64,000 bases of DNA. Source: a virus. The DNA lies in the IMG/VR virus record IMGVR_UViG_3300023198_001068. One strand, written 5' to 3'. The translations under genes and the position numbers were made by a program. The notes under the pieces were generated by a model. That model was not told the origin of the DNA and made no database searches. It saw only the letters and a list, made by a program, of their open reading frames with translations. The first letter of the stretch is position 1, and each line of letters starts with the position of its first letter. Below, piece after piece: positions 3,675 through 52,100 of the stretch.

Positions 3675-3676
3675 CG

Positions 3677-4780: not shown

Positions 4781-4822
4781 GCCAACGCATGACCAGAAGA
4801 ACAGTAGCGACCTTCCCCCCGG

Positions 4823-5047
4823 TCACTTGCCCGGCGGGTACTCTTTCTGGAGGCCCTCAACCATGCACTGACGCGAGCAATAGTAGCGCTCGGACACCAG
4901 GGTGCTGCTGAACTTGCCGTGCTCGGTGACGGTAACGATGAACCACCCCCGACTGAAGCCTCCCTCCATCAGAGACTCAGAGTGCAGCCGGGAGGTCTCT
5001 TGGTCACAGTCGTTGCAGTCGCAGGAATAGATGTGTCTGACGCTCAT
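4823..5047 (-). CDS. Small Cys-rich (Zn-binding) protein
   Basis: CDCNDC...YCSRQC; coupled to 5044 stop. Confidence 0.55.
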   Translation of the reverse strand: MSVRHIYSCDCNDCDQETSRLHSESLMEGGFSRGWFIVTVTEHGKFSSTLVSERYYCSRQCMVEGLQKEYPPGK

Positions 5048-5544
5048 ACGCCGCCGTGGCCGTTCTTGCAGAGAGAGCCGCTCGGGGTGTCGTGAAGGGG
5101 CTCCCCGCAGACGGGGCAGTCGGTTCCCATCAAAGGGCATTCTTCAAGGGGAAGGTCGGGTCTGGGACCTTCCTTGTCCCAGCCAGACCTCGGGACCTCA
5201 TCGTCGCCTGGGTCGAGGGTGTCTAGGTAGTCGTCCAACTCTCGGTCGAGTTCTTCCTCGGGGTCCGCTTCCAAGGCTGGAGGCCAGCACCATGGCCTGA
5301 ACCCCGTGGTGCAAGAGCCGTCCTTCTCTACGTTGGTCATGGCGATCCAGAAGCACGAGTGTGGCCACTCGACACTGGGCGCCAGGTCGATGACCAGGAG
5401 CGAGCCGATGCCTTTCGACGGGAACCCTTGCCAGCTTTTCGTCATCCGATTGCCTCGGATGTCTTTGAGCGTGGCGAAGTCCACGTCGAGGTAGCTCGTC
5501 AGTTTGGGGTCGGGCATGGTCAGATCCTCAACCAGCGGCGCCAC
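5044..5544 (-). CDS. Hypothetical protein with C-terminal Zn ribbon
   Basis: CPVCGEPL...LCKNGH. Confidence 0.55.
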   Translation of the reverse strand: MAPLVEDLTMPDPKLTSYLDVDFATLKDIRGNRMTKSWQGFPSKGIGSLLVIDLAPSVEWPHSCFWIAMTNVEKDGSCTTGFRPWCWPPALEADPEEELDRELDDYLDTLDPGDDEVPRSGWDKEGPRPDLPLEECPLMGTDCPVCGEPLHDTPSGSLCKNGHGGV

Positions 5545-5888
5545 CTGGAGCGCCCGCTGACCTCGACTTCGGGTTGGGTCAACTCCACGTCTCTCTCACG
5601 GGTGTTTGGCAGGCAGAGGACTTGATGGCGGTAGATCATCTCCAGGGCGACTTGGTGTAGGTCAGGCGCCAGGTCGGCAAAGTCATAGACGGCATCCAGT
5701 TGAGCTACCACGACTCCATTTTGGTGGAACTGAATCGCCCCGGGAATGGTGACTTTGGAGGTGCCTTGAACCGTCACTTCATGGGACCGGCAGGTGCAGT
5801 AGACTCCCTCGCAATCGCACACGATGTCAGGCTTTGGCCACCTGGGGTTCACATCGTTCCAGCACTCTTGGAGATCGTCGTCAGGCAT
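5520..5888 (-). CDS. Hypothetical protein (MPDDDLQECW...)
   Basis: ATG 5888; N-terminus resembles that of 2702..3070. Confidence 0.5.
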   Translation of the reverse strand: MPDDDLQECWNDVNPRWPKPDIVCDCEGVYCTCRSHEVTVQGTSKVTIPGAIQFHQNGVVVAQLDAVYDFADLAPDLHQVALEMIYRHQVLCLPNTRERDVELTQPEVEVSGRSRWRRWLRI

Positions 5889-5907
5889 CACCACCTCCAG
5901 GTGAAGC

Positions 5908-6234
5908 TCAGCGGTTCGAGAGAGACTCTCGCATCGCTTCGGCCACCCGTTTGGTGACTCGACCGGTGCCACAGCACCAGTCGCACGAGTCGTCGCCGGT
6001 CTCGTTGCAGAGACACGGGACCATGTTGCCCGCCGATGGCCCGCATGTGTGTACGCCACTCGTAGGCTCACCGCGAGCCTCGAACATCTCTCGCCAGCAC
6101 TGCTCGGCGAGGTCCATCATGTTGCCGTAACCGATGTTGGCTCCGAGTTCTCGGACCGCTTCCTTGTCCGCTCGGTAGTACCCGGCGCCCGCTGGTCTGG
6201 CCGCTGCAAGCGCAGCCTCATCCGTAGTCGTCAT
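5908..6234 (-). CDS. Hypothetical protein with CxC/CxxC motifs
   Basis: ATG 6234 coupled to the upstream stop. Confidence 0.55.
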   Translation of the reverse strand: MTTTDEAALAAARPAGAGYYRADKEAVRELGANIGYGNMMDLAEQCWREMFEARGEPTSGVHTCGPSAGNMVPCLCNETGDDSCDWCCGTGRVTKRVAEAMRESLSNR

Positions 6235-6797
6235 GGTTTGAAGTCTCCGTTTCCTCTGACCCACTCACCCACGAGATCGAGGTCGGCAACCCTGTCCTCG
6301 AACGTGAGTCCAATGTCACACCCCTCGTAGAAGCACGCTTCGACTTCCTTCCCGTTGACCCATACGGAGGTCAGGTCGGAAGCGCAAGTTTCAAGCTCTA
6401 CATCGCCTTCCAGCAAGTCGGCCTCCACCATCTCGTTGGGGTGGCCCTTCCGGCAGTACCAACGAGGGTCGTGGCCGTTGATGGTGAAGCAGGTGAGCCC
6501 TTCGTTGGCCCACTCGCCGTGTTTCTGCCCGGGGTTGTCGTAGGTTCTGACGTGGATGAGCGAGCCGTTCGGGCCGTGATCCACGTAGAGAACTTGCCGA
6601 CTCATGGGCAGGTCGCCCCGGTCGATGGATTTCTCGTCGTACCAGAGTTCCTTGGTCCAGAAGCCTTCCTTGATGAAGGGGCCAGGCGTCGGGGGAGCAG
6701 GCTCCGGCGTCGGGGGAGCCTTGTACTCGACGACGCCCTCGACCTCAGGCCGCTCTTGGCAGCCGACCAACAGCACTAGCAGCAGGGCGAGTCGCAT
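6231..6797 (-). CDS. Predicted lipoprotein
   Basis: MRLALLLVLLVGC lipobox; start is 5 nt after GGTGTAGAGT motif. Confidence 0.7.
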   Translation of the reverse strand: MRLALLLVLLVGCQERPEVEGVVEYKAPPTPEPAPPTPGPFIKEGFWTKELWYDEKSIDRGDLPMSRQVLYVDHGPNGSLIHVRTYDNPGQKHGEWANEGLTCFTINGHDPRWYCRKGHPNEMVEADLLEGDVELETCASDLTSVWVNGKEVEACFYEGCDIGLTFEDRVADLDLVGEWVRGNGDFKP

Positions 6798-13767: not shown

Positions 13768-14433
13768 CTACTCTACACCATCTGGAGGCCAGACGCGCTG
13801 GCCGTGCCGGACCACGTAGTTGAACCCGATGTGGGGGTTGTTGATCGTCGGATGGGGGTTGCTGAGGGTGGGAGCAGGCAGCTTCTCCCGCCATTGCTGG
13901 AAGAACGGCTCCAGCAGCTTAGTGTCGATCTGCCAGACCTCCCGGAGGTGGTGCCCGAAGTAGAGGGCGATGATCCAGCCGTCGGTCTCCTGGTAGCGGG
14001 TGATGTTGGCGGCGCTCAGGCTGTGCCCGGTAGTGATGGAGGGGGTGCCCTTCTTGACCTCCCCGCTCATCGTTTTCAGGTTGATGGTTTTGACCTCGAA
14101 CCGGCGCCCGAGGGCGTCCTGGGCGTCGTTGCCTCCCTTGCCGGGGATGCTTTGCAGGTCGAGCAGGTCGAGCAGGAAAAAGGTCTTGAGACCCCCGTCG
14201 TCGAGGATGTTGAAGATGCCTCGTTGGTTGGCCCGATGCTCGATGTCATCGAGGTACTGGAGGGTGTCCTGGGGCACCGCGTTGGTCGGTGCTAGAGGAT
14301 GTTTTTCAAGAGGAAGGTTCTCTCGCTCCTGGATCTCAAAAGGCAGCACATCGGCGGTCTCAGGTAAGGACAGCGGTTCTTGGGGTTCAACCACGTCGAA
14401 CGGGAAGATGTCCTCGGTCTCGAAATCAACCAT
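13768..14433 (-). CDS. PvuII-family restriction endonuclease homolog
   Basis: IPGKGGNDAQDALGRRFEVKTINL...HSLSAANITRY...INNPHIGFNYVVRHG aligns by eye with R.PvuII ([23 protein letters not shown]...INNPKIPVKYVMEHG). Confidence 0.8.
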   Translation of the reverse strand: MVDFETEDIFPFDVVEPQEPLSLPETADVLPFEIQERENLPLEKHPLAPTNAVPQDTLQYLDDIEHRANQRGIFNILDDGGLKTFFLLDLLDLQSIPGKGGNDAQDALGRRFEVKTINLKTMSGEVKKGTPSITTGHSLSAANITRYQETDGWIIALYFGHHLREVWQIDTKLLEPFFQQWREKLPAPTLSNPHPTINNPHIGFNYVVRHGQRVWPPDGVE

Positions 14434-14442
14434 CGACGCCAC

Positions 14443-21016: not shown

Positions 21017-21384
21017 CTCAATCTCCTTCGATGAACCGGTTGAGGTGCAGCATAGCCGCCCTCATCGCCTCCGTCGCCGCTTTCAACTCTTTCTCCTGGT
21101 GCTTTTTCAGGTGCGACTCGGAGGGTAGCTTCTGATGGCTGGGTAGGCAGCGGTAGCTCTCGGAGAGCCTGCCGATCAAGCATGTACTCACCGTCCTGAA
21201 CTCGTCCGTGCTGTCCATCCCAACACCTCAAGCAAAGCTCCACCTTGGACACGGCATCAACGAAATCGTGGCGACTGCCCGCAGGCCCATAGGGGTTGCC
21301 GATAAGGGAATTTTTACCTCCGAATCTGCCGATTTCGAGGGAGGGGCCGGCCTCTGGGGGGAGTCCCTGCAAGTAGGCCCACGG

Positions 21385-21409
21385 GCCAGGTTAAATTTGG
21401 GGCCGCTGG
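21385..21409 (+). repeat. 25-bp repeat copy 1 (GCCAGGTTAAATTTGGGGCCGCTGG)
   Basis: 24/25 identical to the reverse complement of 55826-55850. Confidence 0.75.
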
Positions 21410-21423
21410 ATCGTCTCTTAATC

Positions 21424-22263
21424 GTGAGACTCCCCGAGAACTACAGCGGCGCGACTTCCGACAGTCACCTGGTTCAACTCTGGCTGGCGGGTCGGCCCTC
21501 CAACACCGCAGCGGCCTACAGCCGGGATGCGGACTCGTTCCTTGGGTTCCTGGAGTCCGAGGCCATCTGCCTGCAAGACGCCAAGGTGGACCATGTGGTC
21601 CGCTACGTCGAGACCCTGACGGGTGCCCCGGCGACCGTGGCTCGCAAGGTCCGCTCGCTCAAGAGCCTGCTGACCTACGCCCACCGGACCGGCTACACGG
21701 TGTTCAACGTGGGCAAGGTCCTCCGGGCCCCCTCGATTCCGAACCGCCTCCACGAGCGGATCCTGACCGAGGAAACCGTCAAGGCTCTCATTCAGGCGGC
21801 GGCCCCGGGCCGAGACCGCCTGCTCATCGCCCTTCTGTACTACGCCGGCTCTCGCATCACCGAGACCCTGGGGCTCTCCTGGAAGGACCTGGGGCCCGGC
21901 AACGCGACCTTCCACGGCAAGGGTGGCAAGACCCGCACCGTGGCCATTCCCGAGGACCTCATCGCTGAGCTACGCAAGCTGCGGTGGGCCGATGACACCA
22001 ACGACAGCGCCGTGTTCAAGAGCAGTTGGGGCAACCGCCTCTGCCGTCGCGAGGGCTGCCGGGTCGTGCATGAGGCGGCGGATGCCATCGGTGAGAAGGC
22101 GTCCCCTCACTGGCTGCGCCACGCTCACGCCAGCCACTCCCTGGACCACGGGGCTCCGATTCACCTGCTGCAAGCGTGCCTGGGTCACTCCAGCGTGGCC
22201 ACCACCAGCAAGTACCTCCACGTCCGCCCGAACGAAGGAACCTCTCAGTTCCTCAACTTCTGA
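21424..22263 (+). CDS. Tyrosine recombinase/integrase (XerC/D-like)
   Basis: RDRLLIALLYYAGSRITE, GKGGKTR, HWLRHAHAS, LGHSSVATTSKY (R-K-H-R-H-Y intact); start uncertain, GTG 21424 chosen. Confidence 0.9.
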   Translation: MRLPENYSGATSDSHLVQLWLAGRPSNTAAAYSRDADSFLGFLESEAICLQDAKVDHVVRYVETLTGAPATVARKVRSLKSLLTYAHRTGYTVFNVGKVLRAPSIPNRLHERILTEETVKALIQAAAPGRDRLLIALLYYAGSRITETLGLSWKDLGPGNATFHGKGGKTRTVAIPEDLIAELRKLRWADDTNDSAVFKSSWGNRLCRREGCRVVHEAADAIGEKASPHWLRHAHASHSLDHGAPIHLLQACLGHSSVATTSKYLHVRPNEGTSQFLNF

Positions 22264-26217: not shown

Positions 26218-26547
26218 ATGACGTTATCCTACACCTTTGGCCAGCTTCCCATCCACGAACAGAAGAACATCATCAAGGCGCTGTTCGAGGCGCTCCACAA
26301 GCTGCGGGGCTACCTCTATGAGGCCGACCTCAAGCGTTTCGTCTCCTGGGTGGACGACGAGTATCATGCCAACAAGAACGCAGCAGGGCGCCCCTCAGCG
26401 CCCGCACGGCCCACGCGGCCCCCGGAGCCCCGGACGGCCTGGGACCGGATCCGGGGCGTCATGTCCCACCGGGACCAGGACATGGTGATTCGGGAGCCTC
26501 TGAGGGGAGGCGACGAGTACCACCGGTCTCAGCTTCTAAGCCGCTGA
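26218..26547 (+). CDS. Hypothetical protein with TAW motif
   Basis: EPRTAWDRIRG; tandem GTGTA motifs upstream. Confidence 0.6.
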   Translation: MTLSYTFGQLPIHEQKNIIKALFEALHKLRGYLYEADLKRFVSWVDDEYHANKNAAGRPSAPARPTRPPEPRTAWDRIRGVMSHRDQDMVIREPLRGGDEYHRSQLLSR

Positions 26548-28497
26548 GCGGGCGTTGTCCGCGATCTCAGCGGCCTGTTTGGCTAAGCGCCTCTCGTAGC
26601 GCTGTCTCAGGTTCCAGGCGGCGTTCGCATCCCGATCCCAGGTCTCGCCACACCTGCTACAGGTGTGGCTGTCGGCCGCAGGGTCGTCCCACTTCTTGTC
26701 GATGTGGCCGCAGAGGTGGCAGCGCTTGGTCGAGTAGGCGGCCCCCACACGAACCACTCGTTCGGCGCCCTTGTCCTTCAGGAAGCCGATGAACTGGCCC
26801 AGTGCCGCGATCTTGCGGTTGTAGCCGGCGATGGTCTGCCGTTCTTCTTCGGCCTCGGGCCTAGATCCCATCTCTTTCAGGTTGAGGTTCTCCAGGACGA
26901 CGGCTCCATACTCGGAGGTGATCTGATAGGCCCAGCGGCGGTAGATAGCATTGCGGCCCCGGATGGCTCGTTGCTCGCTCCCACGCTCCCACTGGTAGAG
27001 ATGTCGGTTCTTGCGACGCCAGCACTCCAGCTTGAGGACCATCTGCTCGATAGGGTCTGTCCTCCCTTTGCTCGTCAGCCAGAGGGACGAGGGGGCGTGC
27101 CCTTTTTGCTTGGCGGCTTCCCAGGACTTGTAGACGACGTAGGCTCGGCCTCCCACCGTGGCCTTCCACGCCTTGAACTGAGCCTTGAACTGGGCGAGTT
27201 GGGCGGCGTCGTTGTCCCTAGGCTTCTTCGGGCGTGGTGGGGTTGGGAATAGCTCGCGGCTCCAGCGTCCGGCGAGCTTGGCGAGCCTGGCAGGAGACTT
27301 CCACTGGGCAATGTACTTGGCGTCCTCTCGTACCCAGGCTGGGGCCTCGGCCGACTCTGGGGACTTCAGCCATTCCCGGAACTCGTCGCGCATGGCGTTG
27401 AAGTGGAGTTGGCCAATGGCGTGCAACTCATCCTTCTTCTTGAACTTGTCGAGTAGCGCAGCCGGCAACTCCCAAGCCTTTCCTTTCCCGTCGCTGTCTA
27501 TGCTGTAGAGCACTCGCATGTTGGGGTCCATGTAGCGCCAGCCCATGTCCATGCAGATGAAGTTGTCGCCCTCGACTATCGTTTGGAAGGTCTCGCTCTC
27601 CAAGGTGAGGTGCAACTCGTAGCGCAGCCGGCTACCCTCCCTGGTGACCTTGAGACGCGCCATTCGGATGAGGGCATCCTCCGGAAGGGGTCGGTGAAGG
27701 ATGATGGGGAGGGTCGCCCACACGGGAATGCGGCCACCCTTCGTGGGCTCCCCATCCTTACCCAAGGAATCTACCCGGATTCGGACGAGAGAGCGTCCAG
27801 CTTTCAGGGAAGTGCGTTGCGGCTTCCCGTTCTTCAGCGTCCAGGTGTCATCGGGAACCGGATCCATCTGAAGTTGGTTGCTCTTGCCGGAGAACAAGTC
27901 TTCGACAGACAGGCCGCCCTGGAGTTGGTGTCCTATGCTCCCCTTCCCTTCCCATCGCCGGGGCTTAGGGTCCATGCGGCCGGCTGCTGCTGCTGTGATG
28001 TCCTGTTCGGCAGGCATGTAGAGGCCGCACTTGATCCCGGAGTTGGGGCGAAGGGCTCTTGTCTTGGCGAGGTAGTCCTTGTTGTATTCCTTCGACTCCG
28101 CTTCCAGAGCGGCGTTGTCTTTCTCGACGCGCTTTTGCTCGGCCTTCATCTTCGCGTATGCTTGAGCAACCCGCTTCTTGATGGCCTTGATCTCGCACAC
28201 TAGCTCGGGGGAGTTCACGAGGTCGCTCTCGACCTTGTTCTGCTCTCGCTTCTGCCCTCGCGCCTCACCTAGTTGGTGTAAGAGGGCCTCGTATTCGTCC
28301 TCTAGCTGAGCGACGTTGCCGAAGGCTCGACGAGCTTCACGGTACAGACGACGCTTCTCGGCGAGCAGCTTCTTGCGGTCGTTCTTGAAGTCGTGGGTGA
28401 GACGCATCTGCTCGCGAACGAGGTCTGCGTTGTCGATAGGCGGTAGGCACCCGAAGGTCCAGATACGGCTTGGAGTGGTAGACACTTTTCGTTTCAT
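26536..28497 (-). CDS. cas12: Compact type V CRISPR effector, Cas12m/V-U1-like (~653 aa)
   Basis: N-term IWTFGCLPP...LVREQMRLTH; RuvC-I CMDMGWR, RuvC-II VVLENL, Zn finger CHLC/CSRC, RuvC-III DRDANAAWNL; adjacent CRISPR array; GAGG RBS before ATG 28497. Confidence 0.85.
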   Translation of the reverse strand: MKRKVSTTPSRIWTFGCLPPIDNADLVREQMRLTHDFKNDRKKLLAEKRRLYREARRAFGNVAQLEDEYEALLHQLGEARGQKREQNKVESDLVNSPELVCEIKAIKKRVAQAYAKMKAEQKRVEKDNAALEAESKEYNKDYLAKTRALRPNSGIKCGLYMPAEQDITAAAAGRMDPKPRRWEGKGSIGHQLQGGLSVEDLFSGKSNQLQMDPVPDDTWTLKNGKPQRTSLKAGRSLVRIRVDSLGKDGEPTKGGRIPVWATLPIILHRPLPEDALIRMARLKVTREGSRLRYELHLTLESETFQTIVEGDNFICMDMGWRYMDPNMRVLYSIDSDGKGKAWELPAALLDKFKKKDELHAIGQLHFNAMRDEFREWLKSPESAEAPAWVREDAKYIAQWKSPARLAKLAGRWSRELFPTPPRPKKPRDNDAAQLAQFKAQFKAWKATVGGRAYVVYKSWEAAKQKGHAPSSLWLTSKGRTDPIEQMVLKLECWRRKNRHLYQWERGSEQRAIRGRNAIYRRWAYQITSEYGAVVLENLNLKEMGSRPEAEEERQTIAGYNRKIAALGQFIGFLKDKGAERVVRVGAAYSTKRCHLCGHIDKKWDDPAADSHTCSRCGETWDRDANAAWNLRQRYERRLAKQAAEIADNARSAA

Positions 28498-28556
28498 CTG
28501 ATCCTCATCTGATTTAGGTAGGCGACTTCTGCTGGGCAGGAATGTCAATCCAGAAT

Positions 28557-30052
28557 GTCCCAGGTTCTAAGCCCCTGGAATGGCGTTGTGTGTGGCGTGC
28601 ATGTGATGGTCAGGACCAAGCTCACTTCGTCCAACCTGCATCAACTCAGTTCCGAGTTCTAACCCCTCGGACTAGGGCTTGCTCCGCGTCGTGTAACAAC
28701 AGCCACGCGGACGGTGGGGATGTAAGTTCCGGGTTCAAAACCTCCCGGACTAGGTGTTGTGCATCAGGCTTGGCTTCATCACGCCACGGCGCGCAGTTCC
28801 GAGTTCTAACCCCTCGGACAGGGTTTGTTCAGGCGGGACGTTGTTACACGGCGTAAGTTCCAGGTTCTAAGCCCCTGGACAGGCATGGTCCCCTCGTGAA
28901 CGCCTCGCTGTCGCCACACACGGGACAGTTCCAGATTCAAAGCCTCTGGACAGGCATTGCCCCTCCCTTCGTAGAGGCGAGTCTCGCGTCCGATGATCTG
29001 CTTGTCTCAGGTTCTAAGCCTCTGAGCAGGCGTTGTCCCACGGGATGGGGAACTGGCGTGTCCCCCTGCAAAGCTAGTCCCAGGTTCAAAGCCCCTGAGC
29101 AGGCATGGTCCCCTACGGCGTCCATTCCGACACCCTGCGGCGGTGGATGTCCCAGGTTCTAAGCCCCTGGACAGGCATGGTCCCGCCATCGACCCATCGA
29201 GTGAGGCTGACGAAACTGACGGTCTCAGGTTCAAAGCCCCTGAGCAGGCATTGCAAGTGGGGCGTACATGTGACGCTGTTCCGGTTTTTAACCCCTCGGA
29301 CTAGGGCTTGCTCCGCGTCGTGTAACAACAGCCAAGCGCCCGCAGTAGGTGAACAAGGAAGTTCTGTTCCAGATTCAAAGCCCCTGGACAGGCATGGCCC
29401 CGTGATGCCCTCAACAGAGCATACCCCAGAAGAACGTGTCTCAGATTCAAAGCCTCTGAGCAGGCATTGTCCCCCTCCCGTTGCCGTTCCCTGAAGCGGC
29501 GGTAGCGGTCGTCCCAGGTTCAAAGCCCCTGAGCAGGCGTTGTCCCGTCGAGATGATCATCGACCAATGGAACCCATCGAAGGTGTCCCAGGTTCAAAGC
29601 CCCTGAGCAGGCATGGCCCCACAGTCCGAGGACGGCAGAGATGACGGGACACGTTCCAGATCCAAAGCCTCTGGACAGGCTGTTGTTCCCGCGAGGTCGT
29701 AGAACGACGGAGGGATGACGATCCCGTTCCAGGTTCTAAGCCCCTGGACAGGCATTGTCCCGTGCCACGCAGGAGCCCGAGGTTACGAAGCCCCGGTTGT
29801 CCCAGCTTCAAAGCCTCTGAGCAGGCATTGTCCCCTTCTTCAGGTTCTTGTTCTCGGTCATTGTTCACCTTGTCTCAGGTTCAAAGCCTCTGAGCAGGCA
29901 TTGTCCCATGTCCCCCTCACTGTCGCGGAACAGGACGATGGCCGGGTCCCAGGTTCAAAGCCCCTGAGCAGGCGTTGTCCCGTGGCCCTCAGTGAGTTGC
30001 CTGCGACCCGCATGGTGTCCCAGGTTCAAAGCCCCTGAGCAGGCGTTGTCCC
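28557..30052 (-). CRISPR. CRISPR array, 21 repeats (~36 nt) and 20 spacers (20-56 nt, most 32-40)
   Basis: Repeat starts on + at 28557, 28649, 28726, 28796, 28857, 28928, 29004, 29077, 29149, 29222, 29278, 29366, 29438, 29511, 29585, 29653, 29726, 29799, 29872, 29946, 30017; minus-strand consensus GGGACAAYGCCTGCTCAGRGGCTTTGAACCTGRGAC; orientation inferred from degeneration toward cas12. Confidence 0.92.
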
Positions 30053-30273
30053 CCACCTAGCAGGAACCCTGTCGTGTCCACGCCTTGAAGGTCGTTTCGC
30101 GAGCGGTCCCCAAGGGCACGGCGAGAGGGGCCCAGAGAGCGCACCAACACGCCCTCTGGCTGTATTCGATTGCCAGAGATCGAGCACCAGCGAGCGGTTC
30201 CAGACGAGGTGGAAGTGCCTGGCCTCTCGCAAGTGGAACAAGGGGTAACACGTCAAGAACAAGCACGTCTACT

Positions 30274-30774
30274 TCATTCTGGTAGGATCGTCCCCAGCAG
30301 GATGTGGTCCCAAACGGTCGGCTTGTCCGGGGGAGCCGGCACGTCTACTGGATCGATCCCGCGTTCCTCGAACAGCTTGAGTAGCTCGAACCAGAACTTG
30401 GGCACGTCGAGGGTCCGCATCTTGACCGTCTGACCCCGGTACTGGGAGTTGACCCAGTGCCCTGGAAGCCGGACCTCGAACACGGAGTCCCGGGCCTCGT
30501 CCAAGGCAACGACGAACGGGTAGAGGACGGGAGGTGTCATGGTCCCCCCAGGTCTCTGGGCCGCCGCTCGCAACGTCCTCCAGTCCGCGTGCTCTAGTTC
30601 CAGGACGGCTCCTGGATCCTCCAGAGCGTTCTCGATGCGGAGGGACGCCCTGACCCCGGCCGCGTTGTTGTTGAAGGGCGGCTCCGTGTTGATCAGATGC
30701 AGAATGAAGTTGGCGAACGACTCCATGCCCCCGCCTGGAAGCTCCACCGGCTGGGGAATGGTGACGTACTTCAC
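30274..30774 (-). CDS. Hypothetical protein with TAW-like tag
   Basis: Ends DKPTVWDHILLGTILPE. Confidence 0.65.
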   Translation of the reverse strand: MKYVTIPQPVELPGGGMESFANFILHLINTEPPFNNNAAGVRASLRIENALEDPGAVLELEHADWRTLRAAAQRPGGTMTPPVLYPFVVALDEARDSVFEVRLPGHWVNSQYRGQTVKMRTLDVPKFWFELLKLFEERGIDPVDVPAPPDKPTVWDHILLGTILPE

Positions 30775-31569: not shown

Positions 31570-32232
31570 CTACGATACACCACCCGCGCCGTTGGTCGGC
31601 TTCTCGATGGCGGCGAGCGGCGGACGGGGTGGCTTCATCACAGGGTAGAACGGCTTGGGGTCCTCGCAGAGAGCCCGAAGGTTCTCCAGGAGGAAGGGGT
31701 CAACTTCGTCCTCGGGCTCGGACAGCGGGGGCATCAAGAACGGCCCCACGGCTCGTCCTACCGTGACCGACTGGCACGCGGTCCCCTTGTCGTCGGGCGG
31801 GAACGCCAGCGTGTTCCTGAGATTGGCCTGGTGCATCAACTCGGTCAGGTTCTTGGCGTCGTCGTCGCTGCCCTCGGGCCACCCGTCATCCCGGGGCCAG
31901 ATCCGGCCGTCCCAGCCGAACCGCTGGAGAGCGGCCACGGTGGGGTTCAAGGTCTCGGGCCAGATGGGTAGCTCGATCTGAAGGGTCCCCTTGGGCTCCG
32001 GGACCTCGGTGTTCCGGATGAGCATGACCACGAGCATCACCAGCGGGATGTCAACCTTCTCCCGGACCCCAACCCAGCCGAACAAGGGGAGGCAGAGGAA
32101 GTCCCCCTTGACCGGGGGCGAGATGAGCTTGCCCACCGGGAGCTTGCGGTGGTCTGCACCCTTGGGTCCCTGGGCTTCTTGTTCTTCCCGTTGCTGCTTT
32201 CGGCGTTCGAGTCTGCGACTGAGCTTGCCCAT
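31570..32232 (-). CDS. Hypothetical protein
   Basis: Long coding-like ORF. Confidence 0.65.
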   Translation of the reverse strand: MGKLSRRLERRKQQREEQEAQGPKGADHRKLPVGKLISPPVKGDFLCLPLFGWVGVREKVDIPLVMLVVMLIRNTEVPEPKGTLQIELPIWPETLNPTVAALQRFGWDGRIWPRDDGWPEGSDDDAKNLTELMHQANLRNTLAFPPDDKGTACQSVTVGRAVGPFLMPPLSEPEDEVDPFLLENLRALCEDPKPFYPVMKPPRPPLAAIEKPTNGAGGVS

Positions 32233-32840: not shown

Positions 32841-33974
32841 GTGGACGCCGTTGCCCGCAGAGTTGCCCGTCGAGTCGTGGCCGAACGGCTGACGAAACAG
32901 TGGCTCATGGGCGTGCGCCGGGGGTGGCTCCAGGTGATGGAGCCAAACATCACCGACTGGCCCAGTGTGCTCAAAGCCCTCGACCGGCTGGACACGTTCG
33001 CCGAGAACCTCAAAGAGCAGGTGCTCTACGTTCGACGAGGCCCTTATTCATCAATGTCGTTCAACAAAGAACGCAAGCAACTAGAACAAGCCTTCGAGAA
33101 GCTGGACAAGTGGATCTACAACGCCCGAGACACAGCACGTCACTGGAAAAGTTGGGCTGACGGCACTGCTGGGGGCTACCAGTGGGGGGAGGACCGGAGC
33201 GCCGATGCCGCTCACATGCTCGACCTCTACCGAAAGGACTTCATAGCCGTCACCTCGGGGGACATCCCTCAGCGGGGTAGCTACGGTCTGGTGAAGCAGG
33301 TGCCCCTGACCTACTTCATGGACAAGATCCTGGGCATCCTCCGAGCAGACGCCAAGCGGATCATAGAATACTACAAGGCTTTCTCGCCCAGTACCCCAGC
33401 GCCCAAGCTCGACGTTGAAGAATCAGTGTTCACAGAGTTTGCTCTAGGCCAAGTCAAGGTGGTCATCGACGACCGCACGGTGAGACCTGATCAGATCAAT
33501 ATGTACGCCAAGGACTTCACCAAAGCCCAACGAGCCCTTCAGAAAAAGGGCTTTGGCAAGGTGTGGTATGGCACCATCTTCGTCCGATGCGAGAAGTGCG
33601 GTGGCGAGAACCCTTACGGGGCCGAGTTGGGTGTGGGCGGCAACTATCCTTCAGGGCCGGATGTCGTCAACATCTTCTCGCGACCTGGCAACGGCACTGG
33701 GTTGCTCATTCATGAGCTTGGTCATCGGTGGTGGTTCAAGTTCATGCGTCGAGGGGTACGTCTCCGGTTCATTGACTGGGTACAGGCGGGGCTTTCTCCC
33801 GTATCCAGTTACGGAAGTAAAGCCCCTGAAGAAGCGTTTGCCGAAGCGTTTGCCTGGTACGTGATGGGCAAGTCGATGACCTCCCAGCAGGTCGAGACAT
33901 TCAAGGCAACGGCCTTCGGCAAACGCCTGGCCTCTACCAGTCGCCGTTCTGGACCTGCCCCCGCTTCCCCTTGA
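32841..33974 (+). CDS. Zincin-like metallopeptidase (ATLF/MPTase-type) protein
   Basis: LIHELGHRWW...VSSYGSKAPEEAFAEAF; N-term MDAVARRVARR. Confidence 0.7.
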   Translation: MDAVARRVARRVVAERLTKQWLMGVRRGWLQVMEPNITDWPSVLKALDRLDTFAENLKEQVLYVRRGPYSSMSFNKERKQLEQAFEKLDKWIYNARDTARHWKSWADGTAGGYQWGEDRSADAAHMLDLYRKDFIAVTSGDIPQRGSYGLVKQVPLTYFMDKILGILRADAKRIIEYYKAFSPSTPAPKLDVEESVFTEFALGQVKVVIDDRTVRPDQINMYAKDFTKAQRALQKKGFGKVWYGTIFVRCEKCGGENPYGAELGVGGNYPSGPDVVNIFSRPGNGTGLLIHELGHRWWFKFMRRGVRLRFIDWVQAGLSPVSSYGSKAPEEAFAEAFAWYVMGKSMTSQQVETFKATAFGKRLASTSRRSGPAPASP

Positions 33975-35094
33975 TGACGTGGATCTTGTCGCTGGGGATC
34001 GGGCACGAGGTGTTGGTGTTGCCCTGGCCGGGGGCTTCCATCGGGATGCCGTAGAGCGTCTGGGCGCCCCCCGGGCTCGGTGACTCGTTCTCCGGCAGGA
34101 CTCCGGTGAGCCCCTTCTGGAAGCCAAGCTCCAGGATGCTCTTGGCGTTCTTGAGCAGCCCTGAACCCACCAGGGCCTTGAGCCCGTCGTCGTAGTAGTC
34201 GAACCAGGGCATCCCGGCTCGGGCGTAGTCAGCAGCCGTCTGCGGCGGGTATGGGGGCTCGGCCTGGGTGATGGCCTTCCAGGCGAGGCTGTTGGCCAGG
34301 TGGACGTACACGCGGCTGCTGTGCTCCTGGTCCCAGTCGTCGAAGTCGAACTTGTCCTCGAACACCTCTTGCTTCATCGAGCCGCCCATCCCGAGCCCCA
34401 TGTCGGGCGCTGCTGACGCTGCCGCGATCTCGATCCCCCGAGTGCAACAGTTAGCACTGAAGTTCTTGCTCAGCCTCCTGCTCCGCATTCTGCCGTCGGG
34501 CCTCGGCTCTCGCTTGGGGAACTTGCGCTCGTAGACCTCAGCCTTCATCGGGTAGACCTGGATCTGGATGCCGCCGAATTCCTCCTTGCCGTCGAGTTGA
34601 GCCTCGACCGTGAGCCCCATCCCGAGGGGCATCGCCACAAACTGCCGAACCTTGCCCTTCTCGACTACGAACCCGTCGAGCCAGGGCTGGCCCGGGACCA
34701 CCACGTAGTCCTGGTCCTCACCGGGTCGGTTGCGGAGCTTGGGCCACCAGGCGTTGCCGGTCAGAGCACACCGCTTGCCGGCGGCGATCTTGACGGCGAA
34801 CGGGTAGGCCGAGGGCCGGCGGGTACCCGACATCGGGTGGAAGTTGATCCACAGCGCCTCCGACTGGTACATCGGCAGCATGATGCCCATGCGCTTGATC
34901 CACTCGGCGGGAACGCGGTCCACGTAGTCCTCGATGTGCCGCATGGGGAAGCGGCCCATGCCGGGCGGGAGCGGGTAGGTCTTGCCGTCGTCGGGGAGAC
35001 GCAGCGTGCGTTGGAACTCCAGGGAGAACTGGGCGTCCTCGTGGACCTCCGGGAGGGCGAACTTCAGGGTGTCTTGCTCTAGTTTGATCGTCAT
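33934..35094 (-). CDS. Conserved hypothetical protein (FQRTLRLPDD family)
   Basis: FQRTLRLPDD...YPLPPG...LPMYQSEALWINF...QDYVVVPGQPWLDGF, a widespread uncharacterised family. Confidence 0.7.
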   Translation of the reverse strand: MTIKLEQDTLKFALPEVHEDAQFSLEFQRTLRLPDDGKTYPLPPGMGRFPMRHIEDYVDRVPAEWIKRMGIMLPMYQSEALWINFHPMSGTRRPSAYPFAVKIAAGKRCALTGNAWWPKLRNRPGEDQDYVVVPGQPWLDGFVVEKGKVRQFVAMPLGMGLTVEAQLDGKEEFGGIQIQVYPMKAEVYERKFPKREPRPDGRMRSRRLSKNFSANCCTRGIEIAAASAAPDMGLGMGGSMKQEVFEDKFDFDDWDQEHSSRVYVHLANSLAWKAITQAEPPYPPQTAADYARAGMPWFDYYDDGLKALVGSGLLKNAKSILELGFQKGLTGVLPENESPSPGGAQTLYGIPMEAPGQGNTNTSCPIPSDKIHVIKGKRGQVQNGDW

Positions 35095-40647: not shown

Positions 40648-41067
40648 ATGCCAGACGACCTGACTGAAGTTCACCGCCGCCGGTTTGGCACCTTCGACGT
40701 GCCTCGGGACATGCCCATCCGGGTGTTCTGCTCCGAGAAGAAAGTCGAGTTCGCCAAGGGCCGTTGCTTCTACGAGTTGACCAAGCGGGAGTTGGTCCAG
40801 GGGACCAAAGAGGTGGTCCTGGTCCGCTCGTCGGACCGGGCCGTGTTCACCGGGCCCCGTGCCCGGCGGCTCCTGGGGTTGCCTCTCCATGACGAGGACG
40901 TAAAGATCCACCCTCGCTCGCTCGACGGTTACGTCCCGTACATCCAGAGCACGAGCTACAACCGCAAGCTCATTGGGGGGACGCAAATCCTGTTCGAGTG
41001 GCCCAACTGGGACAAGGAGCCCCCGACCGCCTGGGACTTGCTGGACGAGGATCTGTTCGGGGAGTAG
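40648..41067 (+). CDS. Conserved domain (usually vWA-associated) with TAW tag
   Basis: FAKGRCFYELTK...ARRLLGLP...IQSTSYNRKL; ends PTAWDLLDEDLFGE. Confidence 0.65.
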   Translation: MPDDLTEVHRRRFGTFDVPRDMPIRVFCSEKKVEFAKGRCFYELTKRELVQGTKEVVLVRSSDRAVFTGPRARRLLGLPLHDEDVKIHPRSLDGYVPYIQSTSYNRKLIGGTQILFEWPNWDKEPPTAWDLLDEDLFGE

Positions 41068-45389: not shown

Positions 45390-45788
45390 TTACTTTTCGA
45401 GCTTGACCACGAGGATGGCCTGCTGCTGCGAGAGGGCGCCGATGGCATCTTCCAGCTTCTCGGCTTTCACGCCGTAGTCCTTGACGTGTTCCTTGACGCT
45501 ATCGTTGCTCTGCGTCGCTTCCAGGCTTAGCCGGGTGGCTAGTTCGTTGTTCTCGATGACCTGATCTCTGAGAGCGTCGTTGACCTTCGTCAAGGTCTCG
45601 GTCATCTGCTCCCGGTCTTTCAGCCGGATGTCCTTGGCCTTGAGCAGCGCCTTCGTGACCTTGAACAGCACCACCACCACGGCGACCAAGGCCACGCACA
45701 GGAGCACCACGATGGCGCCCCACACGCCGCCTTCCTTCAGGAGTACCCCGAAGGCGTCAGAGGTGGCGTCGGCCGCGAACAACAACAT
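45390..45788 (-). CDS. Single-TM protein, possibly holin-like
   Basis: GVWGAIVVLLCVALVAVVVVLF followed by a basic stretch. Confidence 0.55.
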   Translation of the reverse strand: MLLFAADATSDAFGVLLKEGGVWGAIVVLLCVALVAVVVVLFKVTKALLKAKDIRLKDREQMTETLTKVNDALRDQVIENNELATRLSLEATQSNDSVKEHVKDYGVKAEKLEDAIGALSQQQAILVVKLEK

Positions 45789-45942
45789 GTCTCAGTTTCA
45801 AAGCTACTGAGCTAGCTTTGTCCCACTAGAGGTGGGACTTCAAAGGATTCGCCGTTACGGGCGCTGAACTGGGTATATCTCGCCCGAAACAGCCTTGTTC
45901 GGAATGGGCCAAACGGGAGGGTCGTGACTGGCTGGGTTCTTC

Positions 45943-46563
45943 TTACCCCTCCGCTCCCTCTCCTTTTTGACTGCCGTGTGCAGTGTCTTCAGTTCGTCCG
46001 AGCCCAGTTTCTCCAGCTTCAGTTTCACGGTTCTCCAATCCATCTAGGGCCTCTCCTTGGGCCTTCATGACCTTTCGGATGGCTGCGTCAGCTAAGGCCC
46101 AATCGTCCTTGTGCATGATGTGGCACGAAAAGAACATCGGAAATCCGTTGATCGAGCGGGGAGCCACGTCGGGTCCGTACTCCCCGTACACGATCCCGAT
46201 GTTCAGGAGTTCCTCCTTGGGCCAGTCCGCTAAGGCTCCCAGCCCCAGGGGCAGGAAGATGCTCTTGACCAGGTGCTCCGAGCCCTCGGGGATCTGGACC
46301 GACAGGAAGTACCGGTTGGCGATGACCCCCTCCACGAACTCCCGAAGCTCCTGGGGCGTCTTGCGTACCGGGGCGAAAAGGCGCTCCCCCCCTTCCCCTT
46401 GAACAGCCTTCCAGTCCTCGGCGATGACCTCTTGTTCCTCGGGAGGGTCTAGCAGCAGTTCGTCGTGCTGCTCGGGCCAGGAGTCGATGAACTCGGGCCA
46501 CTTCTCGTCGGGCTTAGGCACTTTCCCCTTCACCATACACCAGGTAGGCTTGGGCCGTGCCAC
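45943..46563 (-). CDS. Hypothetical protein
   Basis: Coding-like ORF. Confidence 0.6.
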   Translation of the reverse strand: MARPKPTWCMVKGKVPKPDEKWPEFIDSWPEQHDELLLDPPEEQEVIAEDWKAVQGEGGERLFAPVRKTPQELREFVEGVIANRYFLSVQIPEGSEHLVKSIFLPLGLGALADWPKEELLNIGIVYGEYGPDVAPRSINGFPMFFSCHIMHKDDWALADAAIRKVMKAQGEALDGLENRETEAGETGLGRTEDTAHGSQKGEGAEG

Positions 46564-46955
46564 CCCCCTACGAGCGCCGGGTCAGTTGGGAGCTTCGCTA
46601 CTCCCATGCCGGCATCTTGTCTCAGCGAGGGGGCACCGAGCGCTTCCGGCTCGACATGGCGCGGCTCCACGCCGACCCTCACGTCGTCAGCCTCAACGTC
46701 ACGGAAGACCCCGCAGTCCGTGGCTATGACGTGCTGGTCCAGTTCGTACCTGGAGTGGGGGGACCTCAGAACCCGGCGCTGTGGGGTCTGAACGACGAGT
46801 TGAACCGGAACGCCCCTCTGGAGTGGGGCCACAAGACGCCGCCCCCGGTCTACGAGGGCGAGGTTGACCACGACTGGAAGCCGCCCGAGCCGCCCAAGAC
46901 TGTCTGGGACCGGATTATGCAGGATGACGAGTCAGACCTGGACGATCCTGGCTAG
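46557..46955 (+). CDS. Hypothetical protein with TAW-like tag
   Basis: PKTVWDRIMQDDESDLDD. Confidence 0.6.
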   Translation: MPPPYERRVSWELRYSHAGILSQRGGTERFRLDMARLHADPHVVSLNVTEDPAVRGYDVLVQFVPGVGGPQNPALWGLNDELNRNAPLEWGHKTPPPVYEGEVDHDWKPPEPPKTVWDRIMQDDESDLDDPG

Positions 46956-47729
46956 CTCAAAGTGCATCCCGTCCTTGCGCTTGAAGTGGCCTCCCCAGTA
47001 GAAGCCCAGCTTGTTGGCGATGGAGACGAGTTCCCGGACGCTGCCCTTATTGCCGACCAGGGCCGGCGTCTTGCGTAGGCCGTTCCAGGGCACGTTGATG
47101 TCGAACGCCGTGGCCCAGGTGTGGTTGCTGAGGTAGGTCCGGGAGCCCCGCACGAACCGGGGGCACCAGGAGCCGGCCCACGACAGCACCAGGTCCATCT
47201 GACCGGCTTCCTCCCAGGCGTTGAACAGGGCCAGGAGTTGAGCCGTCCCGGCCTTGTGCCAGAAGATGCGCCCACTCTTTGGGGCTCCCCGGACGCCCTT
47301 GAGTTGGGGGACCACGACGCGGGTCAGGTTGTTCTTCTGCCAGGATCCGAGGATGACGATGCCCTCGGGGTTGCCCTTGGTGGGCTTGGCCTTGAACCGG
47401 ATCTTGCCGAACGTCTTGTCCCGGCCCGCTGCGCCTAGGGGGCGGAAGCTCGGAGCCGCCGGCCAGTTGGGGCCCTCGTTCTTGCGGACGTCCTTGATGA
47501 GGTCGTCTGCGGAGAAACCGTCGCTGAGGGCCGTTCCCCACGTCATGCCCCCGACGACGCCATCGTTATCGAGACCCATGGTGTTCTGGTAGACCTTCGT
47601 GGCCTCGTGCGTGGCGTCGTCGAACTTGCCGTGGGCCTCTCCCGTGTAAGCGGTGTCGCCCAGCAGGAACTCCTGCCACTCGCGGACCAGCGGACCTCGG
47701 GAACCTTTGCGGAGAGTCTTGAGTTGCAT
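46932..47729 (-). CDS. Endolysin: PG-binding domain plus M15 metallopeptidase
   Basis: LRKGSRGPLVREWQ...GLDNDGVVGGMTW (PG_binding_1); SNHTWATAFDIN...WGGHF...DGMHFE (M15 Zn ligands). Confidence 0.85.
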   Translation of the reverse strand: MQLKTLRKGSRGPLVREWQEFLLGDTAYTGEAHGKFDDATHEATKVYQNTMGLDNDGVVGGMTWGTALSDGFSADDLIKDVRKNEGPNWPAAPSFRPLGAAGRDKTFGKIRFKAKPTKGNPEGIVILGSWQKNNLTRVVVPQLKGVRGAPKSGRIFWHKAGTAQLLALFNAWEEAGQMDLVLSWAGSWCPRFVRGSRTYLSNHTWATAFDINVPWNGLRKTPALVGNKGSVRELVSIANKLGFYWGGHFKRKDGMHFELARIVQV

Positions 47730-48891: not shown

Positions 48892-49161
48892 GTGACACAG
48901 TGGACCTTGAATGACCCGAGGTGGTACGACGAAACTCGTTCGCTCGTGTTGTTCCTAGCGACGCCTCGCAAATGGAAAGCCCTGTCTGCGTGGGCCAAGG
49001 AGAACCACGTCTCCGAAACGCATTTGCGAGAGTGCCTGGCGTGGCTCGACAACCGCCACGAGGCGTGGGCTGCCTACACCTCGGACGAAATCGCTTTTTG
49101 GAGAGCCCTCCCTCTGACGAGAGAGGGGGAGGCGGTCACCCAGCAGCAGGAGACGGGGTAG
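48892..49161 (+). CDS. Hypothetical protein
   Basis: Trp-rich small ORF. Confidence 0.5.
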   Translation: MTQWTLNDPRWYDETRSLVLFLATPRKWKALSAWAKENHVSETHLRECLAWLDNRHEAWAAYTSDEIAFWRALPLTREGEAVTQQQETG

Positions 49162-52100
49162 CCAGGTAGCGCTTGAGCACGTTGCCGGCAGTGTCGAGAG
49201 ACACTCGCTCTTGGCCAGCCATGACTTTCTCGAACCTCTCGACCTTGGACTTGTCCCAGTTGCCCGTCAGGTTGAAGTGCCCGAGAGCGAATAGCTCGGC
49301 GAACGCTTCTCCGTCGTTCCACGAGTAGCGGGTGGTTCGCCATTCCACGTCTCGGTCGAAGTCCGTGGGCAAGCGGCTGTACTTTTCGTAGCGGTGGCCG
49401 AGTTCGTGGATCAAGATGTACCCGACGGTTCCGTACCCGGCTGAGCGCTTGAGCACTTGAGGGGTAGCTTTGACCAGCATTTCGTCCCGGGCCTGCTTGT
49501 ACTTCCCCTGGACCTTCATCTCGCTGCGGCCCACGAACACCACTTTGAGATTGCCGGCCAGGGCCTTCTTACGCCACCCCTTGAGTGCGCCGAATGTCTG
49601 GTCTACCTGCTCGGCGTACTTGCGGAAGTTGGTCTCGCTGAGATTGCCACGGTTGTAGTACGTGGCGTTGGACAGCTTGAGTTCTGTGACCTGCTCTTTC
49701 TTGCCCCGAGCCTTGTCGCCCTCGGCAGTGAAGAACTCGACTAGGCTCTCCAGGTCCGGCGCCATCCGCTTCCACAGCGTCTCTACGGTTCGCTGGGTTC
49801 CGCCTGGTGAGACGGTAGCCCCTGGGGTGCTGAACAGATCCAGGTTCTCCAGCAACCGTTGGGCATCTTCCTTGAGCCGCTTTTGACCTCGGGGTGTCTT
49901 GGCAGACTGGACTCTCTGGAAGTTGGCTCCGAACCACTGGGCCAGGTCTCCGGTTAGCTGTCGAGCTTTGGCGTCATCAGTCTCCTGGATGATGGTATTG
50001 ACGCGACGCTGGAGTTCTTCTCCGAGCCCCGCTGTGACCAGGCGTGCCCCTTGGACTGTGGTGCTCCAGAAGAACTGGCCGGGGATCTTGCTGGCCTTTC
50101 CGGCGGCGAGCTTCTGACACTCCAACTCCTGCATCTGGCAGTGGGTCTCGAAATGGTCGGTCATGACCACACTACCACGCTGCATGGCCTCCAGAGACTC
50201 TTGCTGGAAGGCCGTGAAGCGACGCGGCTTGATCTCCGCTGGCTTCCAATCGCTGACAGCCTTCCCCAGGAACGCAATGTCTTGCTTCAGGTTGGCGACC
50301 TGCTCCTTGTAGAATCGGATGTACCGCCCTAGCTCCTGTTCGTAGCGCTTGTCGGTCTGCCCGATTTGCTCCATGCCTTTGTTGGTTTCGACTACGATGG
50401 GGTCGGGGCGGCCCTGGTACTTCTTGAGGTCTTCCTCCGCTTTCGGCAGGATCTTCTCCTGGATGTACTTGCGAAACGCCTTGGTGCCTTCGGGACTGGT
50501 CTCGTAGGGCTCCCACTTGGTTCCGAAGCAAGGGCCCCCGTGCCAAGACAGGCCCCACTCGCCCTTGCGCCGCCCGCCTTGCACCTCCCAGCCGTGGCGC
50601 ATGATCTTGTCGTTCTTCAGGAGGATGCCCCGGAAGCACGCCGGGCAGATCCCCTCACCGGGCTTGGTTTTCTGGACCTGCTTCTTGGGGGTGAGAGCCC
50701 CAAGCTCGATGAGTTGGTCGTGGGCGAGGCTCTTGTACTTCTCGGAGCGGGTGACCTTGGAGAGTTCGACGCTGTGGTAGTATTCCTTGCCACCCCTATT
50801 TTCCTTGACCAGCAGGAAGGTACCCTCGGGCACCGTCACGTTGTAAGCCGAGTAGGCTACCCACGCTTGTTCGATTTGAATAGCCCAGTCGTAGGAGGGG
50901 TGAGGCTCCGGCTCGTGAACCCCTTTGAGGAACAGTTCGCCGGCCTTCCCCCTCTTGGGCGGCGACGTCACGATCTTGGCGACCTGCTTGATCTTCTTGT
51001 AGCCCCGTTGGGTCATCTTCTCGTTCTTGAAGAAGATCAGGGTCTTCCCGTAGCGGGTGTCGTCCCCGATGATGCTCTGCACCTTGCGAACCTTGAGCGC
51101 CCCTCGGACGTTGTACGGCCTGAGTTCTTGCACGTCGGTCGTCGCCTTTGCCTTGACACCCGGAACCATGAGCTTGAGCGCCGCGATGAGGGGTTCTATT
51201 TCCCAGACCATCGACCGACCTTCGGCTATACCCGTGAGCATGGTGACGAGCGACGGGTTGGCGGCTGCCCAGACTTGGCGTGCCCGCTTCTCCATCTCCT
51301 TGAGCTTGGAGTAATACGCCTCGTCCTCGGTTAGGTGGTCAAGAGCCACCTCCCGAGCGATGGCAGGGTCGTCCGTGTGCTCCCTTTCGACCTTGATGCC
51401 CATGGCCAACTCCTGGGGGTCGAGATCGTCCGGCTCGCCCTGGTCGGCGAGACCGCCCGGTAGCTTGTCCTCGTCCTCGGCAGCAGATTTGACCATCGGG
51501 GCGGCTCGACTGAAAGCGTCCCGCACGATCTCGGGCACCTTGCCCGGACCCTTATAGGCGTAGTCGGCGACGACCTCGGCAAAGAGTTCCTCGGGGTTCG
51601 TGGCGCTGTAGGCGCTGACCGGGTAGAGGAACGCCTTGATCTCACCCTTCTTGGCGATGAGTTGGTCGAGGCCCGGAGTGCCCTTGGTGTCCACGTCCCC
51701 TCGCCGCTTATCGACCTTCTCCGAGATGTCGGCCTTGTCGAGGACGATCTTGAGCCACATCATTTCGTCGTCGGACAGCTTATTCTTGGCCTCGCTGTAG
51801 TAGTGCGAGATATAGCGTCCACGACCTCCCTCAGTCGCCCAACCAGAATTGCTGTTAGCCCAGGCTTCCCAGTCCCGGATGATCTTGTCCACATCCGGAG
51901 GCTGCACGTTGTCGCCAAAGAACTGCTCCCACGCCTTGCGCCCCTGGCCACTGAGCACCTTGAAGTAGAGGCGGTGGCCGAGTTCGTGGACCATCGAGTG
52001 GGTTACGGCGTTCACGTCCCCGCCGGCAGCGGCCAAATTGATCTGATCCGTGGGGATGTTGTAGTTGGCCAGGGAGCTAGATCGGCTGCTGCCCGCTCCG

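Follow-up and report, generated by a model that had tools for sequence, protein, structure and literature searches.

Organization of the CRISPR-Cas12m locus

The IMG/VR virus record IMGVR_UViG_3300023198_001068 was analyzed over a window of 64,000 nucleotides, representing 64 kb of an 80.8-kb contig of which 17 kb lies outside. The window possesses a cas12m gene, encoding the effector of a type V-M CRISPR system, next to a long CRISPR array, and both are read from the minus strand. The cas12m gene (26536..28497, minus) encodes a protein of 653 amino acids (aa) and was recognized from its open reading frame (ORF), PADLOC, a profile search of PDB sequences and an AlphaFold model. The ORF spans 26536-28548 (minus), and the most likely start is the ATG at 28497. 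From the sequence, a GAGGA ribosome-binding site was read 4 nt upstream of this ATG, and the resulting N-terminus (MKRK...) agrees with that of the homologues P0003 and P0004. The gene is intact and its codon bias is that of the element itself (GC content at third codon positions, GC3, 0.76).

Upstream of the gene, a repeat search identified 21 repeats of 36 nt and 20 spacers (28557..30052, minus), which read towards cas12m with a period of about 73 nt and spacers of mostly 35-38 nt. The last repeat and the ATG are separated by a spacer-like stretch of 59 nt (28498..28556, minus) that includes the GAGGA site. The leader region (30053..30273, minus) is the intergenic space between the array and a gene at 30274-30774 (minus). 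Besides cas12m, 94 ORFs were called in the window by third-position GC and all were scanned; no Cas1, Cas2 or Cas4 family of Pfam was found among them across the 64 kb. A first-pass annotation of this DNA had described a RuvC and zinc finger protein of about 653 aa adjacent to a 21-repeat array without adaptation genes, and the gene, its motifs, the CxxC...CxxC finger, the array and the absence of adaptation genes were all confirmed.

The window protein is a full-length Cas12m

Four independent lines of evidence agreed that the protein is a full-length Cas12m, as the same annotation had proposed in calling it a Cas12m/V-U1-like effector. The Cas12u1 model of PADLOC (V-U1, now V-M) matched it with an E-value of 1e-85 over residues 10-438 and beyond. 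When the single sequence was searched against PDB, the best match was 23vw, a Cas12m (E 1e-59), followed by GoCas12m (8pm4, 6e-20) and Cas12m2 (8hhl, 3e-17), while TnpB was matched only at E 1e-6 and only at residues about 500-650 (the last 130). A family profile of 85 relatives, run against PDB sequences, matched each of the five Cas12m entries along its full length, with E-values from 2e-175 (23vw) to 1e-74. Non-Cas12m entries (TnpB, Cas12f) were matched at 1e-13 or weaker and in the C-terminal part alone. Similarly, the NCBIfam TnpB models remained far under their cut-offs and covered the C-terminal portion alone.

The AlphaFold2 model, built on the alignment of the 85 relatives, had a mean predicted local distance difference test score (pLDDT) of 90.5 and a predicted template modelling score (pTM) of 0.86. 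The top Foldseek matches of this model were 8hhl and 8hio (Cas12m2) and 8pm4 (GoCas12m), with template modelling (TM) scores of 0.69-0.78 (0.71-0.78 for 8hhl and 8pm4); Cas12f and TnpB were next, at 0.32-0.59. The model contains the REC1/REC2 'sickle' coiled coil (aa 24-153; 28039..28428, minus), composed of four long helices (24-57, 62-90, 97-127 and 129-153), each modelled at pLDDT >90. This region aligned solely to Cas12m structures, and a coiled-coil REC lobe, with its REC2 coiled coil, sets Cas12m apart from TnpB (PMC10442227). Near the C-terminus, C593, C596, C613 and C616 form the CCCC zinc finger of the TNB domain (26650..26721, minus; Pfam PF07282, E 5.5e-13).

TnpB of IS200/IS605 elements (e.g. 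ISDra2, PDB 8H1J/8EXA) shares the RuvC and zinc finger D-E-D core with the window protein. However, TnpB has about 400 aa, no coiled-coil REC lobe and a single omega RNA, whereas the window protein has 653 aa, a REC lobe and a multi-spacer array. No transposon ends or TnpA were seen at the locus. The only TnpB-like trait is a solitary repeat over the cas12m stop codon (described below), reminiscent of where the omega RNA lies, at the 3' end of tnpB. The first-pass annotation had named clustering with IS605 TnpB, together with a lack of Cas12m N-terminal features, as an outcome that would speak against it. The protein does not cluster with IS605 TnpB and it carries the N-terminal features, so the Cas12m assignment stands. 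The family is large, with 1,253 cluster representatives at E 1e-30 or better, and the nearest relative of the window protein is 35-38% identical to it.

Structure of the repeats and of the guide RNA

The minus-strand repeat folds into the Cas12m pseudoknot handle, in which two helices interleave: alignment columns 10-12 pair with 22-24, and columns 15-21 pair with 31-36. Across the 21 distinct repeat copies 96.3% of the cells are paired and seven of the nine pairs show compensatory changes. None of 500 shuffles reached this level of pairing, and sliding the partners abolished it. The 3' strand of the main helix lies at -8 to -3, leaving two free bases after it, in the register of the solved handles of Cas12m2 and PmCas12m (PMC10442227; 10.64898/2026.03.26.714355). 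A covariance model made from the window repeats detected the arrays of four further cas12m loci, all of them oriented as their gene. The array of the virus Rctr197k, read by eye, is also gene-oriented and has the same terminal hairpin, CUCAG...CUGAGAC. Wobble pairs alone favor the minus strand slightly (96.3% paired versus 93.1% on the plus strand); the strand was assigned because the other loci are co-oriented and the register matches the solved handles, not from the wobbles. The covariance model gave no accepted match on the strand opposite the gene, so that an anti-repeat is absent and nothing points to a tracrRNA (trans-activating CRISPR RNA).

The repeats are heterogeneous, with a mean column identity of 79%. 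Three cas-proximal copies (28649-28684, 28726-28762 and 28796-28831, spanning 28649..28831, minus) and a fourth at 29278-29313 (minus) differ from the consensus at 13-16 positions and still hold both helices through compensatory changes. The cas-proximal spacers are irregular, at 20-56 nt. Within the array, a unit of one repeat and part of a spacer (28644-28709) is duplicated at 29273-29338 with 91% identity. A short spacer carries an 11-nt reverse complement of the end of the duplicated spacer (spacers 28685-28726 and 28832-28856), a match that is borderline for chance.

The spacers were compared with several sequence collections. When the first 20 nt of each spacer were searched in the window with up to 4 mismatches, four weak 4-mismatch matches were obtained and none was credible. 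The whole array gave no blastn match in 50,697 phage records, and among 72,556 plasmids its only matches were of repeats to the MsCas12m array. Exact-word scans with one spacer each in IMG/VR, JGI metagenomes and GTDB genomes, to which mismatched targets are invisible, found no target.

The RuvC triad, the insert and the position in the family tree

Alignment to Cas12m structures and to 85 relatives placed the catalytic triad at Asp317 in RuvC-I (CMDMGWR; 27547..27549, minus), Glu536 in RuvC-II (VVLENL; 26890..26892, minus) and Asp623 in RuvC-III (WDRDANAA; 26629..26631, minus). The candidates CMDMG, VLENL and DRDAN picked out in the first reading thus align with the RuvC-I, II and III columns. 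The annotation had also stated that characterized Cas12m enzymes have a non-canonical RuvC site and that the window protein may be nuclease-competent; the former is out of date and the latter finds no support. The triad states known in the family are H-D-D, N-D-D, H-E/Q-K, D-E-D, N-E-D and D-N-D, and of the four clades into which Cas12m was split, clades 3 and 4 are D-E-D/N-E-D (PMC10442227). D317/E536/D623 is therefore one of the described states, that of clades 3 and 4. D-E-D was found in 60 of the 85 nearest relatives, the others having N-E-D, D-K-D, N-D-D, H-D-D, H-G-D and more, and it is probably the ancestral as well as the majority state of the family.

In the work of Bigelyte et al., all four D-E-D orthologues assayed, MsCas12m among them, bound double-stranded DNA (dsDNA) in a manner dependent on the protospacer adjacent motif (PAM) and left it uncut; processing of CRISPR RNA (crRNA) survives RuvC mutation in tested Cas12m (PMC11013384). 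Conversion of the H-D-D triad of Cas12m2 to D-E-D did not regain cleavage (PMC10442227). As D-E-D is the majority and probably ancestral state and the tested D-E-D enzymes do not cut, the intact-looking triad does not predict cutting, and D-E-D alone is no sign of nuclease activity in the Cas12m family. In a maximum-likelihood tree of 97 Cas12m rows rooted on TnpB, the triad state changes at least 19 times, which fits a core function independent of catalysis. Within the clade of the window protein itself N-E-D, D-A-D, D-R-D, S-R-R and W-R-P triads are present.

A Lys/Ala/Pro-rich insert lies between RuvC-I and RuvC-II at aa 418-489 (27031..27246, minus), where alignment and composition confirmed the insert noticed in the first-pass annotation. 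Its length is 72 aa (family median, 15), and it opens with a Pro/Lys-rich linker. A clade of 31 members shares an insert at this site, with a length of 28-53 aa. Three short helices are modelled in the insert of the window protein at low confidence (pLDDT 48-68). The possibility that it represents REC2 was rejected, REC2 of Cas12m2 being the N-terminal coiled coil.

In the tree the window protein is the first branch of the 31-member insert-bearing clade (Shimodaira-Hasegawa-like approximate likelihood ratio test, SH-aLRT, 97) and is distant from the TnpB outgroup. MsCas12m falls in the neighboring clade and the Rctr197k protein in a third. Since the protein belongs to a derived clade with the insert, remote from TnpB, and has the full REC lobe of Cas12m, the tree places it as a derived member of the family and not as the intermediate on a path from TnpB to Cas12m that had been suggested.

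Among the relatives, the closest one (P0022, 35% identity) is found on phage-like metagenome contigs of about 102 kb together with an M15 peptidase, SLT, HNH and a beta-helix protein. Within 10 kb on either side of its gene, neither of these two contigs has a CRISPR array. Three metagenome contigs with clade members end 60-136 nt past the cas12m stop codon, which suggests that the assemblies break at a downstream array.

Comparison with known Cas12m loci

One of the closest known counterparts is MsCas12m (WP_013159911) of the plasmid pMESIL02 of Allomeiothermus (Meiothermus) silvanus (PMC11013384), which has D-E-D like the window protein and is homologous to it over the full length (26% identity, E 3e-34). 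Its array repeats are 89% identical to the window repeats and equally heterogeneous. In both loci the array is gene-oriented, with no tracrRNA and no adjacent adaptation genes. MsCas12m differs in its length (536 aa against 653 aa), in lacking the 72-aa insert and in being plasmid-borne with the array downstream of the gene, the window array being upstream. Cas12m2 of M. mucogenicum (PDB 8HHL/8HIO) and GoCas12m (8PM4) share the fold, the handle register, the REC coiled coil and the TNB zinc finger with the window protein, but they are only 18-20% identical to it and carry H-D-D instead of D-E-D; the zinc finger is HCCC in Cas12m2 and CCCC in the window protein. The closest solved relative is PDB 23vw, a 577-aa protein deposited as 'CRISPR-associated DNA-binding protein Cas12m', which has D-E-D at the aligned positions and no counterpart to window residues 418-489.

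The earlier remark that phage-encoded V-U1 relatives had been reported is borne out by the literature. V-M systems are over-represented on plasmids and also occur in some prophages (PMC11656645). MvCas12m of the myxophage MV-1, a D-E-D protein with an adjacent 8-spacer array and no adaptation genes reported beside it, was presented in a 2026 preprint as the first in phage (10.64898/2026.09.14.751636); by its published description it has 610 aa and 8 spacers, compared with 653 aa and 20 spacers in the window. A further case is the virus Rctr197k (GenBank KX853510), a 2016 Caudoviricetes record with a virus-borne D-E-D Cas12m, an adjacent array and no adaptation genes annotated beside them. Its intact 622-aa homologue at 2959-4827 went unrecognized, being annotated only as 'similar to transposase', and is followed by an annotated CRISPR region at 4861-6375 with about 22 repeats. 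This protein is 25% identical to the window Cas12m and belongs to another clade, and its array is downstream of the gene. The window locus thus adds to a known family, V-M on prophages and phage having been reported already.

Probable phage context of the locus

The window contains a tyrosine integrase (21208-22263), an M15 endolysin (46932-47729; Peptidase_M15_4 and endolysin PHROGs), peptidoglycan-binding proteins, a Lar restriction-alleviation protein, a deoxynucleoside monophosphate (dNMP) kinase, helix-turn-helix (HTH) repressors, and RNase H-like and ParB-like nucleases. No tRNA, housekeeping or conjugation genes were found in it. It is quite likely that the element is a temperate phage, the phage origin being probable and not proven. 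The phage-borne location claimed in the first reading is supported by the integrase, the endolysin, Lar, the dNMP kinase, the avoidance of certain hexamers and a recurrent promoter-like motif (both described below); recognizable terminase, portal and tail genes are missing from this support.

The hexamers CAGCTG, GAGCTC, CTGCAG and GTCGAC are absent from the window (1-64000), and GGATCC, CCCGGG and GGCGCC occur 14-41 times. A gene at 13768-14442 specifies an endonuclease of the PvuII family (Pfam E 1e-21, PADLOC REase_II E 5e-19), for which a methyltransferase was not found in the window. Other genes include one for a 1501-aa protein with a DUF5661 domain (49136-53641) and one for a 614-aa protein with a GT51 peptidoglycan transglycosylase domain (57577-59421; E 4e-43), which is unusual for a phage. 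A 386-aa protein (33934-35094, minus; GC3 0.90) resembles uncharacterized, partly membrane proteins of Actinomycetota (ESM Atlas, score 0.98) and gives a weak hint of this phylum as the host. No relatives of the element were found by a degenerate repeat pattern in IMG/VR, GTDB genomes and JGI metagenomes, or by a protein-based scan of IMG/VR, and an exact look-up of the Cas12m protein led to no contig.

The motif GGTGTABNRT has 26 sites in the window (e.g. 26226-26235 and 46532-46541) against 0.94 expected from shuffles. Many copies are just upstream of called gene starts and none is in the array leader. This placement fits a promoter for leaderless mRNAs. The promoter-like copy nearest upstream of the array, found in the motif count, is at 31572..31581 (minus), and a transcript from it would cover two genes, the array and cas12m.

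Solitary repeats outside the array

Two repeats were found outside the array. One covers the end of cas12m, including its final 8 codons and TAG stop (26526..26561, minus; 6 mismatches to the consensus). The other (45789..45824, minus; 7 mismatches) is flush with the ATG (45788) of a gene at 45390..45788 (minus), whose translation is a 132-aa protein of the lysis region that has a coiled coil and, at the N-terminus, a transmembrane helix; from this architecture the protein may be holin- or spanin-like. By chance, such solitary copies would be expected about 1e-7 to 2e-6 times, and in 20 shuffled windows the closest match had 12 mismatches. Both copies keep the two handle helices through compensatory changes. 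A weak repeat-like match at 40980-41013 (plus) was read and dismissed as chance.

Putative guides following the two solitary repeats did not match the rest of the window even partially (seed). In five relatives examined the stop codon has no overlapping repeat, and in the virus Rctr197k no repeat lies outside its array. Because the array is downstream of the gene in several relatives, the stop-codon copy may be a relic of that position.

Proposed mode of action and alternative explanations

We consider it moderately likely that the locus is a type V-M CRISPR-Cas12m system, carried by a probable temperate phage, which binds its targets without cutting them. The array and cas12m would be transcribed from the minus strand, possibly in one transcript that starts further upstream. 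Cas12m would recognize the 3' two-thirds of each repeat, folded as the pseudoknot handle, and, as in the tested orthologues (PMC11013384, PMC10442227), would process the pre-crRNA itself with no tracrRNA, retaining a guide of about 17-18 nt. The complex would then bind PAM-flanked dsDNA belonging to competing mobile elements or to the host. On the model of the tested orthologues, the bound protein would block transcription or replication and would not cut. With no adaptation genes, the spacers would be inherited or reshuffled by recombination. No target was found in the collections searched, and the system would most plausibly serve in competition with other mobile elements.

Several observations weigh against this explanation. 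None of the spacers has a protospacer in the collections searched. The promoter of the array was not identified, no promoter consensus being found in the leader 30053-30273. Terminase, portal and tail genes were not recognized in the 64-kb window (17 kb of the contig lies outside), where the sole structural match is a weak one to a major head protein (E 4.8e-5) by a protein without homologues in the protein database. D-E-D is retained in 69-71% of the relatives (67/97 and 60/85), which may reflect selection for a catalytic role missed by the published assays. Moreover, every tested Cas12m enzyme lies outside the insert-bearing clade of the window protein.

The last two points also speak for an active D-E-D site, by which Cas12m would cut or nick its target DNA or degrade single-stranded DNA, perhaps aided by the insert. 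The acidic triad is complete, as is the zinc finger, the RuvC core is modelled with high confidence, and hydrolysis of DNA by clades 3 and 4 has been raised as a speculation (PMC10442227). However, four of four tested D-E-D orthologues did not cleave dsDNA (PMC11013384), and in Cas12m2 restoring the triad did not restore cutting (PMC10442227). Close relatives have lost the triad on at least 19 occasions, several of these relatives being in the same clade, and the closest solved relative, 23vw, which also has D-E-D, was deposited as a DNA-binding protein. An active nuclease thus appears unlikely.

Decay of the locus is a far weaker candidate. Were it a non-working relic, the repeat column identity of only 79%, the strongly diverged cas-proximal repeats and the irregular spacers next to them would be signs of erosion, and the lack of adaptation genes and of targets would agree with it. 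But cas12m is an intact gene whose codon bias follows the element and whose product has a confidently predicted fold, and the changes in the repeats are overwhelmingly compensatory, at a level of pairing that no shuffle attained. The arrays of the working MsCas12m and of the relative P0007 are equally heterogeneous with compensatory changes, indicating a habit of the family and not decay. We regard a relic as highly improbable.

The solitary repeats raise another explanation, in which Cas12m acts also, or instead, on transcripts of the phage. Copies of the handle in phage messages, at the cas12m stop, at the start of the lysis-region gene and 59 nt before the cas12m ATG, where the last array repeat lies, would let Cas12m double as an RNA-binding or processing regulator that sets the levels of cas12m and of the lysis-region membrane protein. 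If true, Cas12m would regulate its own level and the timing of lysis. Both solitary repeats are sense-oriented in their transcripts with their helices kept, they sit at a stop and at an ATG, and stand-alone repeats with regulatory roles are known beside cas genes (10.1101/2023.03.03.530964). On the other hand, there are only two copies, and no close relatives of the element were found in which their conservation could be judged. The repeat over the stop codon is seen in none of the five relatives and may derive from a downstream array as in other members, Rctr197k has no such repeats, and the two 'guides' have no partial matches in the window. This regulatory role is therefore considered doubtful, both as an addition to DNA binding and in its place.

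DNA binding without cutting is thus retained as the preferred explanation for the locus. Its array is unusually long for a locus that lacks adaptation genes. Cas12m is in use for base and epigenome editing, and for this reason the compact effector described here is of possible interest to tool builders. The locus represents an insert-bearing clade of Cas12m beyond those tested so far and, with at most 38% identity to any known relative, it is a divergent and well-resolved virus example of what is probably a non-cutting CRISPR system.

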